Positions 1 through 8,778 of a DNA stretch of 64,000 bases are shown piece by piece; position 1 is the first letter of the stretch; each line of letters starts with the position of its first letter. The stretch is taken from NCBI RefSeq assembly GCF_016026235.1, contig NZ_CP065613.1. One strand, written 5' to 3'. The notes beneath the pieces are model-generated. The model worked only from the letters and a program-made list of their open reading frames with translations, ran no database searches and was not told the DNA's origin. The position numbers and the translations under genes were made by a program. Source of the DNA: Escherichia coli. GTDB lineage: Bacteria > Pseudomonadota > Gammaproteobacteria > Enterobacterales > Enterobacteriaceae.

Positions 1-744
1 CGCTCCTTCATTTTTCGCCAGGCCTTTAATCAGGAAGGCCACGCAGGTGCCGAAAATCGCCATCGCCATGATGTCCACCTTGAGGTACAGCACCGCGAAG
101 AATCCGCCGATAAACCACGGCAGCAGGCTCTTTTTACCAATCACCATAATGGTGATGGCGAAGCCCAGCGCTGGGAGAATCCCGCCCATGATTTCAAACG
201 AGTGGGTCAGCCAGTGCGGCATCAGCTTGAGGAAACTTTCCACTACGTTCTGGCCGAAGTAGTTGGCGGCGAACACCACTGGGAAACGTAGTACCAGCCC
301 CAGCAGCGCCGGGTAGAGAAAGGCGCAGCGCATAATGGCTGACATATTGGCCGTTTCCGCGTGTTTATCGGCCATATGCACCCAGGCCGCATTTAGCGTG
401 CGACGCAACTGGTCGAGGAATACGCCGATAACGCCAAATGGAATCGCCAGTGCAATCGCCAGGTTCGGGTCCATATTGGCCTTAACGGCGATAGGAATGG
501 CGATACAGGCCGCCAGCGCCGGGTCTGACGGCACATTGCCGCCTGGCGTTGAGGTCACACCCAGATAGACCAACTGCATCCCCGCGCCGATAATCATCGC
601 CGCAGGCATATTGCCGAGCAGCAGGCCGACAAAGACCGCCACCACCACTGGCTGTAACAGCATGGCGGAGAAGGTATAGCCAAGGCGCAACCGGGCAAAC
701 CAGTAATACAGCCCCATCAGGCTTGCAAAAAGTAAGGTATCCAT
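1..744 (-). CDS. PTS mannose/sorbose-family EIIC component (partial, runs off window start)
   Basis: Minus-strand reading frame from ATG at 744 to position 1 without stop (not in ORF track because no stop in window); translation MDTLLFASLMGLYYWFARLRLGYTF... is hydrophobic multi-pass and resembles mannose-family IIC; follows IIA and IIB genes on same strand. Confidence 0.6.
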   Translation of the reverse strand, partial: MDTLLFASLMGLYYWFARLRLGYTFSAMLLQPVVVAVFVGLLLGNMPAAMIIGAGMQLVYLGVTSTPGGNVPSDPALAACIAIPIAVKANMDPNLAIALAIPFGVIGVFLDQLRRTLNAAWVHMADKHAETANMSAIMRCAFLYPALLGLVLRFPVVFAANYFGQNVVESFLKLMPHWLTHSFEIMGGILPALGFAITIMVIGKKSLLPWFIGGFFAVLYLKVDIMAMAIFGTCVAFLIKGLAKNEGA

Positions 745-769
745 AATTTGTTATCCCATGTTCAGAGGG

Positions 770-1255
770 TCAGAATTTTTTCAGGATATCGTCCAGCGAC
801 TGCGGTTTATCTTCCGGGATGGTCTGGAAAACAGCCTTAATGCCGCGACTTTTCAAATCGTTAAGAATGCCAACGTCTTTTTCATCCAGCGTTATGTTCT
901 GGAACACCGCTTTACGGTTTGGCCCGCCGCCTAAACCGCCAACCTGAATATCAGCCACGTCAAAGCCCTGCTGCACCGCTTCCTGAATCGCCGCCAGCGA
1001 CGGGAACAGCACCAGCACGTTGCCGTCGCCCAGCTGGTTCTCTTTCCACGCGGCCGCGAAGCTCTGGTTGCTAAAGCAGTCCACTTTGATATTCGGCGGC
1101 GCGGCCATCAGGTAGATATTTTTCATAAACGGATCGGCGTCCAGCTCGTCGCTGACCACCGCAATACGGTTGGCCTGAGACTGCCCTACCCACTTCGTCA
1201 CCACCTGTCCGTGGATAAGACGGCTGTCAATGCGACATAACACGATGTTTGCCAT
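770..1255 (-). CDS. PTS mannose/sorbose-family EIIB component
   Basis: 161-aa ORF with RIDSRLIHGQV motif typical of mannose-family IIB phospho-histidine region. Confidence 0.7.
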   Translation of the reverse strand: MANIVLCRIDSRLIHGQVVTKWVGQSQANRIAVVSDELDADPFMKNIYLMAAPPNIKVDCFSNQSFAAAWKENQLGDGNVLVLFPSLAAIQEAVQQGFDVADIQVGGLGGGPNRKAVFQNITLDEKDVGILNDLKSRGIKAVFQTIPEDKPQSLDDILKKF

Positions 1256-1265
1256 ACGATTTTCC

Positions 1266-1694
1266 TTACTGTTGTAATTGACGAATATGGGAGACGACGT
1301 CCAGGCAACTGTTGCGCCCAGCTTCCACCAGATCGGCCACGCAGGCGGTCAGTGGGCCATGTTCGCGCTTGTCCAGCGCCTCCAGCAGCAGCGAGGCATT
1401 AAGCCCGGAGATCACCGCCACCGGATAATCGGCGCTCAGCCGCGCCGCCACGTTAGAGGTGGTGCCGCCGATAAAATCGGTCACGATAAGCGAACCTTCC
1501 GGCATGGTTTTCACCACGGCTTCGACGCGCTGGTAAAACTCGCCCAGCGTATCGACGGGCATCAGCGCGATTTCCGTCACGCCTTCGATTTCGCCCATCA
1601 CCATGCGCAGACTGTTGCAGAGCTGCAGCCCCCAGCCGCCGTGAGTTAGCAGCAGAATTTCAGGTAACGGATGAATAGGTACAGTTGTGGTCAA
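1266..1694 (-). CDS. PTS mannose-family EIIA component (TTG start)
   Basis: 142-aa ORF, LLLTHGGWG motif of EIIA-Man; AAGGAGG Shine-Dalgarno 6 nt upstream of TTG start on minus strand. Confidence 0.65.
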   Translation of the reverse strand: MTTTVPIHPLPEILLLTHGGWGLQLCNSLRMVMGEIEGVTEIALMPVDTLGEFYQRVEAVVKTMPEGSLIVTDFIGGTTSNVAARLSADYPVAVISGLNASLLLEALDKREHGPLTACVADLVEAGRNSCLDVVSHIRQLQQ

Positions 1695-1732
1695 AATAGC
1701 CTCCTTTGCTCCAGTGTTTACATTTCATCAGG

Positions 1733-1748
1733 AGCAAAGGACGTGCCA
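1733..1748 (-). promoter_or_regulatory. sigma-54 (-24/-12) promoter for the PTS operon
   Basis: Minus-strand sequence TGGCACGTCCTTTGCT matches TGGCAC-N5-TTGCW consensus exactly in spacing; located between LevR-like activator gene and PTS EIIA. Confidence 0.6.
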
Positions 1749-1812
1749 GAATTTGTGTCACGCACAGAGGAAATGAGATTGGATGGGGCGTTAAGCCCCG
1801 TAAACCAGGGGA

Positions 1813-4653
1813 TCAGCTGTAGAGCAGTTCGTAGATATAAAAATATTCTGCGTCCGATAAACGGATAGCGTAAGCCTCTTCAATCGGCAAAAAGGAGGAT
1901 TTGATGACGCTAAAGGCACGAGCGTCCAGATCAAGCCGGTTTTCTAGCGCCATCTGTAACGGTTTGCGGTTAATCACGATACGCTCGACCATGCAGCAGC
2001 AGTGGATCAGAAAACGTAGTGTCACCTGGCGGCTCGGTTTCAGGGAGAGCGTGTTGGTTAAGTAGTTCAGAACATCCTCGATCTCTTTCAGAATTCGCTG
2101 CGGGTTGAGCACCGAAATATGGTTGATGATGCTCTCCATGGTCAGCGCGCTGATAAAGCGCATGGCGCTGCGCTCCATCTCCAGTCGGCGCTCGCTGCTT
2201 GAGAGATCCGGCGTCAGCAGGCTGAGCACCAGCTCCGGCCCTTGCTCGGAAAACAGTTCCTCCAGCGAGATAAACGGTATATCCGGCAGTCCCGGCTGGA
2301 AGGTGCCGACGATCCCTGCCAGCCGTTCACTGGCATTAAGCGCCTGCTGAATACGCTCCAGGCTGCGCACCTCGTTATAGTCGAGAATCACCATACGCGT
2401 GTCCTGCGACATCAGCTCGCCAAAGCTCTCCTCCAGCACCTTTTTGATCTTTTCCGCCGTCCCCATTCCGGTTATACATGAGATAACCAGCACTTTGCCA
2501 CCGCTCTCTTGCTGCGGCGTGCAGAGCCGACAAGGGATATTTTTACTCTGCATAAGCACAGCCAATTGCGATAGATCGCCAGTTTCGTAGCTTAAATCCA
2601 GCCCAACCTCCAGCAGGCTGGTCAGAGTGATATTTGGCAACAACAGAACGTCAATCTGGAACAGCTTGCTGATGGTGCTGCCAAAATGGACCAGCGATCC
2701 GATATCCACCATCAGTATCAGCCGCTGCCAGCACCGGTCCTGAATCATCCGGGTCAGGGTTTCCAGGGTGTCATGCACCGACTGCTCAAATGGCATATCA
2801 ATTGCGTAGAACAGATCGCGCTCCAGCACCCGGTTCACATATTGCGCCTGGCTCGTTGCGGTGGTCGCACCGTGAGCGATTAGAATCACGCCGCAATCCG
2901 GGCTGGTGTCGATGCGCTGGCGGTAGTGGCGACACTCTTTCAGGAACAGGCACAGCCAGACCACCTCCGTCGCCGGGCACTGAATATGCAACAACTCATT
3001 GATTTTGCGGCACAGAAGCGTGGCATTGTCATACTCATCTTTACAGCGATCCAGAATCAGGCTGGATGAATAGAGTTGAGGTATAAGCCCTCGCCGCACA
3101 TAGCCAATCAGCGCAAGAAAGTGTTTACGTAACGGGTTCGCCAGGTTTTCTGGCAATGTAAATCCTAATACCTGCTCCACGTAACCGATCAGCAGCGTCA
3201 CACGCTCCTCAATTTGATCGCCATAGCGCGGTGGATGCGCCGCACTATGGCGGCTATAAAGACCATATTCAAAAATCGAACTGAGTTTGTTTTTCAGGAT
3301 AGCCAGCGTTTCTGCGGGCGGCACGTTACTGTTGCGCAGATTGACATATTCACGAGTCAGGAAACTGTAAAACAGGTCGCTCTCTTCTATTTCCGCGCTG
3401 GTCGCCAACGAATTTTTTAACGCGGGCAACGTACGCGCATCCACGTTCAGACGATCTTTACCGCCAAACAACGCATCGACCAGCAGACGCTGCTCTGGCG
3501 TGGTATTAAACGACATCTCCGCCAGTCGTTTATCTAACTCTAGCGTATCATTACGCTCGGTCATTCCCGACGCCCACGCCTGCGCGCACAAGAACTGAAT
3601 ATCACTTTTAAGCTGGCCGATATTGCCTTCCAGGGGTTTACTTAACAACCAATGCAAGAGCGTTTTATCAAGGCTTATGGTACGTTCAATTTTACGACTT
3701 TCACGCTGAAAAAAGCTTACAATCAATTCGAGCTGCTCCTCGACCGAACGCTGGCGAATACCCGGTAAGTCAATACATACCTGGATACGCCGCTGGAAGG
3801 TACGCAATAGTGCCGAGTTGACCGACTCTGTAGTGGCGCAAATAAGGCGCACCGAAATTGAATATGTTGGCCCACTTGAACCAAGTGGGCGGTATTCACC
3901 TTTATCGAGAATAGAAAAGAGCTTCTCTTGTCCTTCGTACGGGAGGCGATGCACTTCATCCAGAAGTAAATAACCTCCGTCAGCTTGCTCCACCAATCCC
4001 GTTTTATTCTCACTTGCCCCGGTAAATGCCCCCTTATGGTGACCAAACAGATGTGAGGAAAGCAACTCCGGATTATGAGCATATTCGGCACAGTTAAAGT
4101 AAACCAACGGAGGTGGCGAACCTATGGTGTGCTTGCAAGCGAAGCAATGCATTAACTCAGCAAAGAATGTTTTGCCAACACCAGATGCACCGGTTAACAG
4201 CACATGTAGTCCGTGGGGATAAAGCACCGCTGCGCGGCCTTTTTCTACCGCATCACGGAGACTACGGTCGTATCCGATAAGTCCGGAAAACGGATCATCA
4301 TCTGTATATTTTTCTTTCTTTGGCAATAAACTAGCCACTGAATGAACTATGCATTCGCAATCATCCAGTTTTCGATTAATGAGCAATTCTAGTGCGTGAC
4401 GATGTAGAAAAAAAACAGGACGTCCCTGACTTTTTACCACCAGGCCTTCATTCCATAATTGATTAAGATCTTTACTAACCGAGTTGCGTGCCAGCCCAAG
4501 GTTAAAACCAATCGCCTCAGCAGTAAATGCTTTCTCCTTCGCTAAATCAGACAGTTCCAGCCCATACGTCAGCCGCTCCAGCTCCTTGTGAATAACATCA
4601 ATCCGTCTCATTTCTTTACCGCTTAAAAAACAATAGTTGTTCAGAACATACAC
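1813..4653 (-). CDS. sigma-54-dependent LevR-type transcriptional activator with PTS regulation domains (true start may be the internal Met near 4611)
   Basis: 946-aa ORF; N-terminal HTH, AAA+ sigma54-interaction domain (GASGVGKTFFAELMH Walker A, LFGH-like motif), long C-terminal PRD/EIIA-like region; adjacent sigma-54 promoter and PTS genes. Confidence 0.75.
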   Translation of the reverse strand: MYVLNNYCFLSGKEMRRIDVIHKELERLTYGLELSDLAKEKAFTAEAIGFNLGLARNSVSKDLNQLWNEGLVVKSQGRPVFFLHRHALELLINRKLDDCECIVHSVASLLPKKEKYTDDDPFSGLIGYDRSLRDAVEKGRAAVLYPHGLHVLLTGASGVGKTFFAELMHCFACKHTIGSPPPLVYFNCAEYAHNPELLSSHLFGHHKGAFTGASENKTGLVEQADGGYLLLDEVHRLPYEGQEKLFSILDKGEYRPLGSSGPTYSISVRLICATTESVNSALLRTFQRRIQVCIDLPGIRQRSVEEQLELIVSFFQRESRKIERTISLDKTLLHWLLSKPLEGNIGQLKSDIQFLCAQAWASGMTERNDTLELDKRLAEMSFNTTPEQRLLVDALFGGKDRLNVDARTLPALKNSLATSAEIEESDLFYSFLTREYVNLRNSNVPPAETLAILKNKLSSIFEYGLYSRHSAAHPPRYGDQIEERVTLLIGYVEQVLGFTLPENLANPLRKHFLALIGYVRRGLIPQLYSSSLILDRCKDEYDNATLLCRKINELLHIQCPATEVVWLCLFLKECRHYRQRIDTSPDCGVILIAHGATTATSQAQYVNRVLERDLFYAIDMPFEQSVHDTLETLTRMIQDRCWQRLILMVDIGSLVHFGSTISKLFQIDVLLLPNITLTSLLEVGLDLSYETGDLSQLAVLMQSKNIPCRLCTPQQESGGKVLVISCITGMGTAEKIKKVLEESFGELMSQDTRMVILDYNEVRSLERIQQALNASERLAGIVGTFQPGLPDIPFISLEELFSEQGPELVLSLLTPDLSSSERRLEMERSAMRFISALTMESIINHISVLNPQRILKEIEDVLNYLTNTLSLKPSRQVTLRFLIHCCCMVERIVINRKPLQMALENRLDLDARAFSVIKSSFLPIEEAYAIRLSDAEYFYIYELLYS

Positions 4654-4869
4654 TATTTGTAAACGTAAGAATGAGAACTATCGGGAAGAATTAATGTTCC
4701 TTGTGGCAATCTGGTTTCTGAATATTCGTGTTTTAAATATTACTTATGGTCTGAAACAACCAGGCAGGTGAACAGAGCTAAGAAAAAGTAGCGTAGAAAT
4801 ATAAAAACATATATCGCACTGATGAATGTTTCCCGGCATGACTATGCACACCGGGAAATATTTAGTAAA

Positions 4870-5790
4870 TTACTCGCCCTTTTTCGCCGCCTGAATATAC
4901 AGCATCTCCAGCGCCAGCGTCGCCGCAGCCAGAGCGGTGATTTCCGACTGATCATATGCCGGAGCCACTTCCACTACGTCCATCCCAACGATGTTGAGAT
5001 CTTTCAGGCCGCGTACCAGTTTAATAGCGCGATCGGAGGTCAGGCCGCCAATCACTGGCGTACCGGTGCCTGGTGCAAAAGCAGGATCCAGGCAGTCGAT
5101 ATCAAAGGTCAGGTAAACCGGCATATCACCCACAATCTGTTTCACCTGGGCGATAACGTCATCCACGCTGCGATCGTTCACCTGGCAGGCGTCCAGTACG
5201 GTAAAGCCGTTGTCTTTATCAAACTCGGTACGAATACCAATCTGCACGGAATGATTCGGGTCGATCAGACCTTCTTTCGGCGCGGTATAGAACATGGTGC
5301 CGTGGTCAAATTCACAACCGTTCGCGTAGGTATCGGTGTGGGCGTCGAAGTGTACCAGCGCCATTTTGCCGAAATGCTTAGCATGAGCACGCAGCAGCGG
5401 CAGCGTAACAAAGTGGTCACCACCGAAAGAGAGCATACGCTTACCGGCAGCCAGCAACTTCTCGGCGTGTGCCTGCAGTTTTTCGCTCATCTCACGGGCA
5501 TCGCCGAAGGCATATACCAGATCACCGCAGTCCACGACGTTCAGGCGCTCACGCATGTCGAAATTCCACGGGAAGCGGTTGTGTTCCCAGGCCAGATTCG
5601 TCGAAACCTGACGGATCGCTGCCGGACCGTGACGACCACCGGCACGGCCAGAGGTGGCCATGTCGAACGGCACGCCGGTGATCACCCAGTCGGCATCGCT
5701 GTCATACGGCTGGAAGTTCATCGGCAGGCGTAAAAAACCAAAGGCGTTGGAAACCAGTGAGTTATCGTATTGATGACCTAAGGTGCTCAT
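4870..5790 (-). CDS. speB: agmatinase
   Basis: Translation [26 protein letters not shown]... matches E. coli SpeB over full 306 aa; ORF-track N-terminal extension to 5874 rejected. Confidence 0.9.
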
Positions 5791-5924
5791 GGATGGACTC
5801 CTATTACAAAGTCGATATAAAAAACCCTTCCGCGTCGTTAGGCCCGACGAGGAAGGGTTGGATTTGCGAAACACAAGTTTGTGCTAATTATCGCCTTAAA
5901 TGGGCGAGGCATCAAGCGAGGTTG

Positions 5925-6656
5925 CTATTTCCGACACGGTGGCGGCGCATAGCCATTGTTATCTGCCGGAAAGGCTTGTCCAGAGCACGGCGGCAGCGCG
6001 TTTTGCGCTGGGCCTTGTAATTCAAAGGCGGCAAAGCCGATTACCCCGGTATTACGCACATCGCCTTGCGCCGAATTGGCTGCGTAGGAATCAGCAACGT
6101 TGGCGAACTGAAAAGCCGCTTCGGTATGTTTATCTTTGCGGAATCCTTTAATCGCTAACGAATCTCCGGCATTCACAATATAGCCGTTGTTATTCAGCGA
6201 ACCTTGCTTGCCGTTCAGCACATCCATGCCATCAACCGTAGCAACGATCTCGTAGTTGGTGTTACGACTGTAATTACGGACATATAATTGATAATTCATT
6301 CCGACTCTGGCATGGACAATATAGCGTGGTTCATTATTGGATGAATCATAAACACGCGTAATAGGTAGAGAATTAAAATTACCATCGCGAATAGCATATT
6401 CCAGTTCGTTAATACGAATGCTATAAACGCGGTCATAGCCGGAAGGAACATTAGTCGAATAACTAATAACGATCATCTCTGCAGGATCGCGCCAGGCTCG
6501 TTCAGCAGATACGCCCTGGACCGATGAGTGCACATCCCCACCCCAGGCGGTGCCGACATTGCCCGATGCACTGCTATTATACTGCGCATTACTGGAACAA
6601 CCGGCCAGCAGCACGATTAATGCCACCAACGCGCTACGTACTTTCCATTTTTTCAT
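5925..6656 (-). CDS. hypothetical lipoprotein (signal peptide with LAGC lipobox)
   Basis: 243-aa ORF, N-terminus MKKWKVRSALVALIVLLAGCSS; sits between speB and speA where I recall only a short intergenic gap in K-12. Confidence 0.5.
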   Translation of the reverse strand: MKKWKVRSALVALIVLLAGCSSNAQYNSSASGNVGTAWGGDVHSSVQGVSAERAWRDPAEMIVISYSTNVPSGYDRVYSIRINELEYAIRDGNFNSLPITRVYDSSNNEPRYIVHARVGMNYQLYVRNYSRNTNYEIVATVDGMDVLNGKQGSLNNNGYIVNAGDSLAIKGFRKDKHTEAAFQFANVADSYAANSAQGDVRNTGVIGFAAFELQGPAQNALPPCSGQAFPADNNGYAPPPCRK

Positions 6657-6801
6657 AACCGTTCCCTCTGCATTTAATTAATGCAGCGATTGTAGGGAGA
6701 TTATTTAATAAGAAAAGCAGCCAGATTATTTTTAAGAATATATAAAAAGAAAGCGGGCCGATTTACGTAAATAAATCGACCCGCCAGCGGAATAATCTTA
6801 A

Positions 6802-8778
6802 TTATTCATCTTCAAGATAAGTATAACCGTACAAACCTGCCTCGAACTCTTCAAGGAACTGTTGTTGCAGTTCAGCATCAAGATCGGTTTTCTTCACTTG
6901 ATCGCGGAACTGGGTTAACAGCGTTTTCGGATCGAGCTGTACATATTGCAGCATGTCCGCCACGGTATCGCCTTCGTCAGACAGTTCTACTTCTACGCTA
7001 CCGTCAGGGAACACGAACACGTCAACCGCTTCGGTATCACCGAACAGGTTGTGCATATTGCCAAGGATCTCCTGATATGCGCCGACCATAAAGAAACCGA
7101 GCATCGGCGGATTCTCTGGATCGTACTCCGGCATTGGCATTGTCGTGGCAATACCATCACCATCAATATAGTGGTCGATAGCACCGTCAGAGTCACAGGT
7201 AATATCCAGCAGCACAGCGCGGCGTTCCGGCACTTGATCCAGCCCTTCCAGCGGCAGAACCGGGAACAACTGGTCGATCCCCCACGCATCCGGCATCGAC
7301 TGGAACAGCGAGAAGTTGACGTACATTTTGTCTGCCATACGTTCCTGCAGCTCGTCGATAATCGGACGATGAGCACGGTTTTGCGGATCCAGTTGCTTCT
7401 GCACTTCATGGCACATGCTCAGATAGAGTTGTTCTGCCCATGCACGTTCTTGCAGGCTAAAGGTGCCGGAAGAGTAGCCGATATGAATGTCGTGCAGATC
7501 CATCTGGCTGTCGTGTAACCATTCACGCAAAGAACGGCGAGTTCCCGGTTCGTGCATCTCCTGCCAGGTTTCCCACATGCTTTGCAGCGCGCGCGGCGCA
7601 TCTTCTGCGGGCGCGGTCGGCACCGTATATTCGTTACGTTCCACGCCGATGATATTCGATACCAGCACGGTGTGATGCGCAGTTACCGCACGACCCGATT
7701 CGGTGATTACCGTCGGATGCGGCAGACCATTTTCTTCACACGCATCACCAATCGCCCAGATGATGTTGTTGGCGTATTCATTGAGGCCATAGTTTACGGA
7801 GCAGTCAGACTGCGAACGGGTGCCTTCATAGTCCACGCCCAGACCGCCGCCGACGTCGAAGCACTGAATATTGACGCCCAGCTTGTGCAGTTCCACATAG
7901 AAACGCGCGGATTCACGAACGCCTGTCGCGATATCGCGAATATTCGCCATCTGCGAACCGAGGTGGAAGTGCAGTAGTTGCAGGCTGTCGAGACGCCCGG
8001 CTTCACGCAGGGTTTCAACCAGTTGCAGTACCTGAGTCGCAGCCAGGCCGAACTTCGATTTTTCCCCGCCGGAGGACTGCCATTTACCCGAGCCCTGCGA
8101 GGCCAGACGTGCACGCACGCCCAGACGAGGAACGACATTCAGACGTTCTGCTTCATCCAGCACAATGGCGATTTCTGACATCTTCTCAATGACCAGATAG
8201 ACCTTGTGCCCCATCTTCTCGCCAATTAATGCCAGGCGGATATATTCGCGGTCTTTATAACCGTTGCAGACGATGACGCTACGGGTCATGCCAGCATGTG
8301 CCAGCACCGCCATCAACTCTGCTTTGGAACCGGCTTCCAGACCCAGCGGTTCGCCCGAATGAATCAGGGACTCGATCACGCGGCGGTGCTGGTTAACTTT
8401 GATCGGATAAACAAGGAAGTAATCGCCGTTATAGCCGTAGGATTCCCTCGCACGTTTGAACGCGGCGTTAATGGAACGCAAACGGTGCTGCAGGATCTGT
8501 GGGAAACAGAACAGTGCAGGCAGACGCTGACCCTGTGCTTCACGAGTTTTCACTAACTGCGCGAGATCGACGCGAGCTTCCGGGACGTCCGGGTCTGGGC
8601 ACACGCTGATGTGGCCCAGCTCGTTAACGTCATAGTAGTTATTGCCCCACCAGGCAATATTGTAAGTACGCAGCATCTTGCTGGCTTCCTGGGAGCTCAT
8701 TGCAACCTCCTGCATGGAGCGTAGTACACCGTGTTCGCCCGCTGACGAAGGCAAACCCATAGACATGTCGTCAGACAT
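6802..8778 (-). CDS. speA: biosynthetic arginine decarboxylase
   Basis: 658-aa product starting [25 protein letters not shown]..., matches E. coli SpeA. Confidence 0.9.

Follow-up and report, generated by a model that had tools for sequence, protein, structure and literature searches.

What does the phosphotransferase system (PTS) operon next to speB in some strains of Escherichia coli transport, and how is its expression controlled? The left end of a 64-kb stretch of E. coli DNA (contig NZ_CP065613.1 of assembly GCF_016026235.1; this whole stretch is referred to as the window, and its coordinates are used throughout) encodes a LevR-type sigma-54 activator and the EIIA, EIIB, and EIIC components of a mannose-family PTS, with all of these genes on the minus strand. 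An initial annotation described the region as an accessory carbohydrate-uptake locus and left its substrate open. We analyzed its sequence features, orthology, distribution, and conservation directly and, from these data, predicted its substrate, enzymology, and control by phosphorylation. The region is very probably the promoter-proximal half of the D-glucosaminate utilization locus dgaR-dgaABCDEF, so that a locus earlier flagged as having no known substrate can be assigned a specific substrate and pathway. Earlier work has characterized the dga system together with its class of regulator and its enzymes, RefSeq names them, and dga circuits in E. coli have been listed by a KEGG-based survey; the gain is one of annotation, not of discovery.

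Gene content and predicted substrate of the locus

The genes for EIID, DgaE, and DgaF lie outside the window and were read from genomes that are identical to it over the shared 4.9 kb. In one of these (L001; 100% identical to the window), the gene order is loiP, dagF, dgaE, IID, IIC, IIB, IIA, dagR, speB. L001 has all seven dga open reading frames (ORFs) intact, the same holds for the parts contained in the window, and the names dagR, dgaE, and dagF are present at the locus in RefSeq. The permease is encoded by four separate mannose-family genes in the order IIA-IIB-IIC-IID (IID read in L001). The initial annotation placed EIIA, EIIB, and EIIC genes of this family beside speB, and Pfam agreed by assigning them to EIIA-man, PTSIIB_sorb, and EII-Sor (the last with E = 2e-74 for the full-length, identical dgaC of L001; RefSeq coding sequence at L001 11995-12744; Table 1). 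Pfam also found EIID-AGA (IID) and a SelA-like pyridoxal phosphate (PLP) enzyme (DgaE) in the L001 operon. The EIID and catabolic genes that were to be sought farther downstream were found there as EIID, DgaE, and DgaF, extending up to loiP and indicating D-glucosaminate.

Three of the encoded proteins passed NCBIfam equivalog models: the regulator passed DagR (NF047795; 1521.4 bits versus a cut-off of 1400, with profile positions 1-938 covered), DgaE passed NF047797 (688.9 versus 600 bits), and DgaF passed DagF (NF047796; 350.1 versus 300 bits), the latter two being read in L001. DgaF also matched Pfam PF07071 (KDGP_aldolase; E = 4e-93). E. coli DgaE is identical to the crystallized Salmonella enzyme (PDB 7LC0) at 319 of 369 residues (86%), and His163 is kept. 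Because the DagR, DgaE, and DagF equivalogs were passed, DgaE is 86% identical, and the gene order is the same, the locus is an orthologue of the Salmonella D-glucosaminate operon, and the view that its substrate could not be named no longer holds. The basis for this orthology is PDB 7LC0 together with the NCBIfam equivalogs and the promoter published for Salmonella; no Salmonella locus was among the 48 related loci retrieved in our cross-species scan (L002 to L049; one genome per species), because the scan used exact peptide patterns that Salmonella did not match.

The dgaR-dgaABCDEF D-glucosaminate system of Salmonella Typhimurium was reportedly described by Miller et al. in 2013, in J Bacteriol 195:4057. 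In the papers used here, it is described in serovar Typhimurium LT2, whereas the E. coli locus occurs in about 10% of complete genomes. Like the E. coli locus, Salmonella dgaR (STM3773) and dgaABCDEF (STM3772-3766) comprise seven genes in the same order with a LevR-type activator, and the DgaF proteins belong to the same KDGP-aldolase family. The site differs, i.e., the STM3766-73 region in Salmonella versus the loiP-speB interval in E. coli and Cedecea. Expression of STM3772-66 is sigma-54 and DgaR dependent, and D-glucosaminate is used as a carbon and nitrogen source (PMC4987338).

By orthology to Salmonella, DgaABCD would form a four-subunit mannose-family PTS permease that takes up D-glucosaminate and phosphorylates it to D-glucosaminate-6-phosphate. 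The PLP enzyme DgaE would then deaminate and dehydrate this product to 2-keto-3-deoxy-6-phosphogluconate (KDPG), from which the KDPG aldolase DgaF would yield pyruvate and glyceraldehyde-3-phosphate. Given these steps, D-glucosaminate would therefore serve as a source of both carbon and nitrogen, and this extra source could mean a small niche advantage for carrier strains.

Several points weigh against this assignment. EIIA, EIIB, EIIC, and EIID all scored below the cut-offs of every Man, Aga, and Sor model in NCBIfam (ManXYZ, AgaBCD/AgaVWEF, and sorbose; e.g., IIC versus AgaW, 131 against a cut-off of 300, and IID versus PRK11103, 205 against 365). Substrate specificity in E. coli is deduced from the identity of DgaE and the equivalog models, and EIID, dgaE, and dgaF lie beyond the window and are supplied from identical genomes. 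Our literature search found no E. coli experiment; growth on D-glucosaminate, transport, induction, and dependence on rpoN or dgaR are known for Salmonella only. With no substrate-specific PTS model passed and the substrate predicted from sequence, the E. coli operon might serve a substrate other than that of Salmonella, e.g., another 2-amino-2-deoxy-aldonate or a gfr-like glycated amino acid, and the paralogous LevR-type PTS operons of Salmonella, gfr and STM0571, do have other substrates (PMC4987338). The fructoselysine/glucoselysine PTS operon gfrR-gfrABCDEF resembles dga in its LevR-type bacterial enhancer-binding protein, sigma-54 promoter, mannose-family EIIABCD components, and two catabolic enzymes. 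However, its catalytic genes are different ones and include no DgaE/DgaF pair (PMC4987338), whereas the E. coli regulator passed a DagR model specific to dga, both enzyme equivalogs were passed as well, DgaE closely matches a characterized enzyme, and the gene order is identical to that of Salmonella. We consider a different substrate highly improbable; the sub-cut-off PTS scores fit a separate Dga subfamily.

Table 1. Features of the dga region and its flank, in window coordinates
Feature	Position	Strand	Description
dgaC (PTS EIIC)	1..744	(-)	Codons 1-248/249; 3' end beyond the window edge; open frame, no stop
dgaB (PTS EIIB)	770..1255	(-)	161 aa; Pfam PTSIIB_sorb, E = 4e-44
dgaA (PTS EIIA)	1266..1694	(-)	142 aa; Pfam EIIA-man, E = 2e-12; TTG start
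Inverted repeat	1702..1741		Perfect, 11 bp; arms 1702-1712 and 1731-1741
Sigma-54 promoter TGGCACGTCCTTTGCT	1733..1748	(-)	Exact consensus match; inferred transcription start near 1722
Promoter-proximal GTGACAC	1755..1761	(-)	6 nt upstream of the -24 TGGCAC; candidate DgaR half-site
Short GC hairpin GGGGC/GCCCC	1785..1799	(-)	Directly after the dgaR stop; weak terminator-like element
dgaR (RefSeq dagR)	1813..4611	(-)	932 aa; LevR-type sigma-54 enhancer-binding protein
3' coding stretch of dgaR with embedded conserved DNA motifs	1905..2025	(-)	Synonymous-site conservation; candidate distal DgaR enhancer sites
GCGTCA	1905-1910	(-)	dgaR codons 901-903; degenerate TGTCA copy (CGTCA in E. coli)
GTTACA	1955-1960	(-)	dgaR codons 884-886
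GTGACAC	2019-2025	(-)	dgaR codons 863-864 (V863-T864)
AT-rich dgaR-speB spacer	4612..4869		Island specific, GC about 43%; right end of the island
speB	4870..5790	(-)	Flanks the regulator

DgaR, the sigma-54 promoter, and candidate binding motifs

The regulator was initially annotated as a 946-aa protein. This length holds for the maximal ORF (1813..4653, minus strand), which reaches a GTG at 4653; the protein itself most likely comprises 932 aa, because the alignment to the NCBIfam DagR model begins at residue 15 of this ORF and both RefSeq and all orthologues start at the ATG at 4611. Its description as a LevR-type sigma-54 activator with PTS regulation domains (PRDs) was borne out by the domains found, i.e., an AAA+ sigma-54 interaction domain (PF00158, Sigma54_activat; E = 9e-41, residues 112-270) in which the Walker A, GAFTGA, and Walker B motifs are at residues 141, 194, and 215, respectively; PRD matches in two stretches of residues 846-930 (Pfam; E = 3e-14); and residues 572-667, which match the EIIA-Man-like domains of the LevR-type proteins PDB 3gx1 and 3gdw. 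The N-terminus (residues 22-75) gave weak Pfam matches to TrmB and HTH_Crp_2 (E about 0.003), below gathering scores.

DgaR shares with Bacillus subtilis LevR the domain plan (AAA+ with GAFTGA, PRD1, EIIA-Man-like domain, PRD2, with the N-terminal helix-turn-helix putative in DgaR) and nearly the same size. The LevR histidines, i.e., His506, His585 (HPr target, activating), and His869 (EIIB target, inhibiting) (PMC10864463), are at positions matching His497, His580, and His870 of DgaR; the first two are kept in 18 of 19 aligned relatives and the third in all 19. On the LevR model, phosphorylated HPr would phosphorylate the EIIA-Man-like domain at His580, rendering DgaR active and coupling it to catabolite control, and phosphorylated EII(Dga) would phosphorylate PRD2 at His870, turning DgaR off when no substrate is transported. 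Salmonella DgaR is switched by HPr and EII phosphorylation (PMC4987338), and by analogy with it and with LevR, we infer that E. coli DgaR is subject to antagonistic phosphorylation by HPr and EIIB. Salmonella GfrR, in contrast, has a tyrosine at the HPr-target histidine (PMC4987338), whereas E. coli DgaR keeps His580. The regulator gene of Gilliamella apicola ESL0177 (L049) has an internal stop near codon 426, which marks either a pseudogene or a sequencing error.

The genes dgaA to dgaF would be transcribed from the sigma-54 promoter in a process requiring DgaR, whose gene directly precedes them on the same strand. The B. subtilis levDEFG-sacC operon, controlled by LevR, likewise places a mannose-family PTS under a -24/-12 promoter; its substrate and enzymes differ. 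The exact -24/-12 promoter reported initially was recovered as TGGCACGTCCTTTGCT within the 118-nt gap between the dgaR stop and the dgaA start, and it is the sole exact match to TGGCAC-N5-TTGCW within the window. Since 6 matches were observed versus 3.3 expected when up to one mismatch was allowed, a consensus match alone is weak evidence. Across species, however, TGGCA(C/T)-N5-T(T/C)GC lies downstream of the regulator stop in every related locus but L045 (a 28%-identity relative), and it is kept even where the proteins share only 40% identity. In enterobacterial loci, about 65-80 nt separate the regulator stop from the promoter; the distance is shorter in Firmicutes and Gilliamella (about 35-55 nt) and longer in Neisseriales (about 165-300 nt). 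On this comparative evidence, which is far stronger than the single-window statistics, we regard the dgaA promoter as real. The Salmonella dgaA promoter bound by sigma-54 in chromatin immunoprecipitation-microarray (ChIP-chip) data reads TGGCACAACCTTTGCTCT; its counterpart in the window is TGGCACGTCCTTTGCTCC, and 3 of the 18 published bases are not shared between them. Counting from the GC of the -12 element at 1735/1734 puts the expected transcription start near 1722. A scan for sigma-70 promoters and terminators yielded nothing informative for the promoter of dgaR.

The TTG start codon of dgaA, preceded by a Shine-Dalgarno sequence (AAGGAGG, 1700-1706), is kept together with that sequence in nearly all Enterobacterales and Gilliamella orthologues, with GTG in one locus. 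The start (1692-1694 in the window) is ATG in Neisseriales and Firmicutes, versus TTG in Enterobacterales and Gilliamella. This conserved weak start codon of the first gene in the operon may limit EIIA levels. In six loci from Citrobacter, Enterobacter, and Superficieibacter (L004, L006, L009, L015, L034, and L043), a repetitive extragenic palindromic (REP)-like element of about 90 nt (GCCGGATGGCGGCGTAAACGCCTTATCCGGCCTAC) is inserted into the 5' leader of dgaA at about 30-120 nt past the promoter, lengthening this leader from about 29 to about 120 nt.

The sequence GTGACA(C/G) was found 4-6 nt upstream of the -24 TGGCAC in 43 of the 48 loci, and GTGCCAC occupied this place in three more; the carriers of the proximal motif include Firmicutes and Neisseriales, in which the intergenic DNA is otherwise unalignable. 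Further copies occur upstream: in Neisseriales, they lie in non-coding DNA as TGACA-N30-35-TGTCA, and in Enterobacterales and Firmicutes, they fall within the last 70 codons of the regulator (for those of the window, see Table 1). We compared synonymous sites across 18 diverse regulators, using 394 conserved columns with codons that are at least three-fold degenerate. Only two of these columns were fully invariant in codon usage, namely, the adjacent Val863 (GTG in 15/15) and Thr864 (ACA in 14/14), which together spell GTGACA. Leu885 is TTA in 14/15 (spelling GTTACA), and Val902 is GTC in 14/16 (spelling TGTCA); none of the codons GTG, ACA, TTA, and GTC is favored in enterobacteria. A reading of GTGACAC as a CRP or IHF site was rejected on account of its poor consensus fit and the conservation of the motif in Firmicutes.

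These patterns make the GT(G/T)ACA/TGTCA motifs candidate half-sites of the DgaR enhancer. An enhancer-binding protein would not typically have a site touching the -24 element; the LevR site is in non-coding DNA at about -125 (PMC10864463), whereas just 64 nt separate the dgaR stop from the -24 element downstream of it, so that the candidate sites adjoin this element and fall inside the dgaR coding sequence. The DgaR enhancer was listed as not known in a 2016 review (PMC4987338). The location of DgaR binding is the only possibly new point of this analysis, and it offers a lead for that enhancer.

The inverted repeat at the -12 element and Shine-Dalgarno sequence

The inverted repeat pointed out in the initial annotation is real and does overlap the -12 element and the AAGGAGG Shine-Dalgarno sequence, although its length is 11 bp rather than 10 bp. 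Its arms are 100% complementary and 18 nt apart, with the left arm at about -19 to -9 (the -12 element) and the right arm at about +11 to +21 (including the Shine-Dalgarno sequence). A hairpin in the induced sigma-54 mRNA was ruled out, the left arm being untranscribed there. As this arm lies upstream of the transcription start, a hairpin is possible only on RNA reading through from dgaR, in which the repeat is predicted to extend to a 16-bp helix (-22.5 kcal/mol, z = -5.0). At -4.3 kcal/mol, the 48-nt leader predicted for the sigma-54 transcript is unstructured, and the unpaired probability of the Shine-Dalgarno sequence is 0.58 in this transcript versus 0.06 in the read-through RNA.

These foldings would suit a control element in which the -12 arm pairs with the Shine-Dalgarno arm on read-through RNA and blocks dgaA translation. 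Transcripts reading through from dgaR or speB would then be silenced, those initiated at the sigma-54 promoter would be translated because they lack the left arm, and leaky read-through would yield no permease. The 16-bp helix is present in both the minimum free energy and the centroid structures, and the short hairpin behind dgaR lacks a T-run, which makes read-through plausible (the Citrobacter and Klebsiella orthologues have longer hairpins there). Translational insulation of this kind would, however, cover dgaA only, as dgaB has its own ribosome-binding site, and an Rfam search of positions 1-7000 at a permissive E-value gave no match.

The comparison among loci also bears on this proposal. 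Among the retrieved loci, Escherichia sp. L024 alone shares the perfect repeat with the window. The published Salmonella promoter (CTTTGCTCT) is of the Citrobacter type without the 11-bp repeat, whereas E. coli has the repeat. We compared the duplex energy between the promoter and Shine-Dalgarno regions with that of shuffled sequences in which TGGCAC and TTGC were kept fixed. The Escherichia duplex (-24.6 kcal/mol versus -14.6 +/- 2.8 for the constrained shuffles; p about 0.003) and the similarly strong complementarity in Pantoea sp. L036, Gilliamella L029 and L049, and Jeongeupia L032 (p <= 0.013) both speak against dismissing the repeat as incidental. Conservation of the complementarity does not extend to the large Citrobacter/Klebsiella group, where the promoter matches that published for Salmonella, and the duplex energy is ordinary there (p = 0.1-0.9) and in most other lineages.

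Partition-function folding of the read-through RNA in 36 loci was then set against shuffles of the upstream 97 nt. Shine-Dalgarno masking as a conserved feature of the family was rejected, with a median rank of 0.43 across the family that is indistinguishable from the null. For the window, the unpaired probability of 0.06 compares with a null mean of 0.22, and 12% of the shuffles were equally low. The shuffles mask comparably because pyrimidine-rich upstream DNA covers the purine-rich Shine-Dalgarno sequence in any order. E. coli has GGAGCAAAGGAGG where its relatives read GAGCCAGGAGG; two or three substitutions therefore made an imperfect complement perfect. The repeat is most likely a lineage-specific by-product of signals that are complementary in purines and pyrimidines, i.e., the -12 region TTTGCTCC and the ribosome-binding region GGAGCAAAGGAGG, and it is probably not a regulatory element. 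With the left arm untranscribed, the perfect repeat restricted to Escherichia, and the masking no stronger than in shuffles across the family, the added control layer that had been suggested for it was not substantiated, and a role in blocking dgaA translation seems improbable to us.

A broader proposal would treat the whole cis-layout of dga as unusual. On this proposal, the GT(G/T)ACA-type half-sites would constitute the DgaR enhancer, with one abutting the -24 element and the others lying in the last 70 codons of dgaR under synonymous selection, and the Escherichia hairpin between the -12 element and the Shine-Dalgarno sequence would silence dgaA on read-through transcripts only, the promoter doubling as an anti-Shine-Dalgarno sequence that is absent from properly initiated mRNA. 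Taken jointly, these two suggestions are rather doubtful, and we put them forward only as a tentative scheme.

Distribution, junctions, and origin of the dga island

A megablast search with window positions 1-4900 against 5,426 complete E. coli genomes detected the segment in 563, always as a single chromosomal copy and never on a plasmid; all copies were >=95% identical, and 561 of the 563 were >=99% identical. RefSeq annotation in these carriers shows dagR and PTS IIA, IIB, and IIC adjoining speB. A sensitive blastn search of the same genomes with dgaE gave hits in 562, all >=95% identical, of which 558 were >=99% identical and full length, and it revealed no divergent dgaE copies. The carriers amount to about 10% of complete E. 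coli genomes and include O111:H8 and O22:H8 strains. In K-12 MG1655, loiP and speB are spaced 205 bp apart with no PTS genes between them, in line with the initial annotation, and the K-12-like junction is present in at least 3,748 genomes. The accessory status proposed for the operon thus stands, given its absence from K-12 and its frequency in the species.

In blastn alignments, the homology between K-12 and L001 breaks off precisely with the stop codon of loiP and picks up again precisely with that of speB (4870). The 205-bp REP-containing spacer of K-12 (L050 4673-4877) is replaced by 7,630 bp (L001 9240-16869), with the right boundary at 4869/4870 in the window. No integrase, insertion sequence (IS), or direct repeats were seen at the island ends. 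This 7.6-kb dga module is an accessory, single-copy chromosomal island in E. coli, and the low diversity of its copies suggests a single, fairly recent acquisition.

The restriction of the locus to about one-tenth of the genomes could alternatively reflect a decaying remnant that is unexpressed or non-functional. The distal TGTCA within dgaR is mutated to CGTCA in E. coli, and one O111:H8 genome has a variant dgaE annotation (96.8% identity). However, the seven ORFs are intact in L001, as are their parts in the window, nearly all dgaE copies are full length at >=99% identity, and the promoter, the Shine-Dalgarno sequence, and the catalytic and phospho-acceptor residues are all retained. Decay of the locus is accordingly a most improbable explanation.

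Complete R-ABCDEF loci in the same order were found in Citrobacter, Klebsiella, Enterobacter, Pantoea/Erwinia, Hafnia, Serratia, Gilliamella, Neisseriales, and several Firmicutes. Placement between speB and loiP was seen only in Escherichia sp. (L024, MOD1-EC7003) and Cedecea neteri (L028), with the locus lying elsewhere in Citrobacter, Klebsiella, and others. That Escherichia and Cedecea neteri share this position points to an insertion site of old standing or, alternatively, to exchange through the homologous flanks.

The GC content is 55-60% in the operon, about 51-53% in the flanks, and about 43% in the dgaR 5' end and spacer. The stretch at about 3700-4869 of the window (L001 15500-17000), which covers the 5' third of dgaR together with the spacer between dgaR and speB, has a GC content of 43-48%. 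This AT-rich part may be of mosaic origin, or it may be a silencer-prone (H-NS-type) region over the dgaR promoter.

Two further features were observed outside the island. Between speB and speA, within a segment at 5867-6801, the window encodes a predicted 243-aa lipoprotein (5925-6656, minus strand) with a signal peptide ending in LAGC, which matched no model of Pfam or NCBIfam. Of the 5,426 complete E. coli genomes, 3,557 carry its gene, whereas K-12 lacks it and has 60 bp instead. On the other side, to the left of cmtA in L001 (1970-4024), a copy of IS1A splits a sorbose-1-phosphate reductase/zinc-dehydrogenase gene next to glpX and cmtAB.

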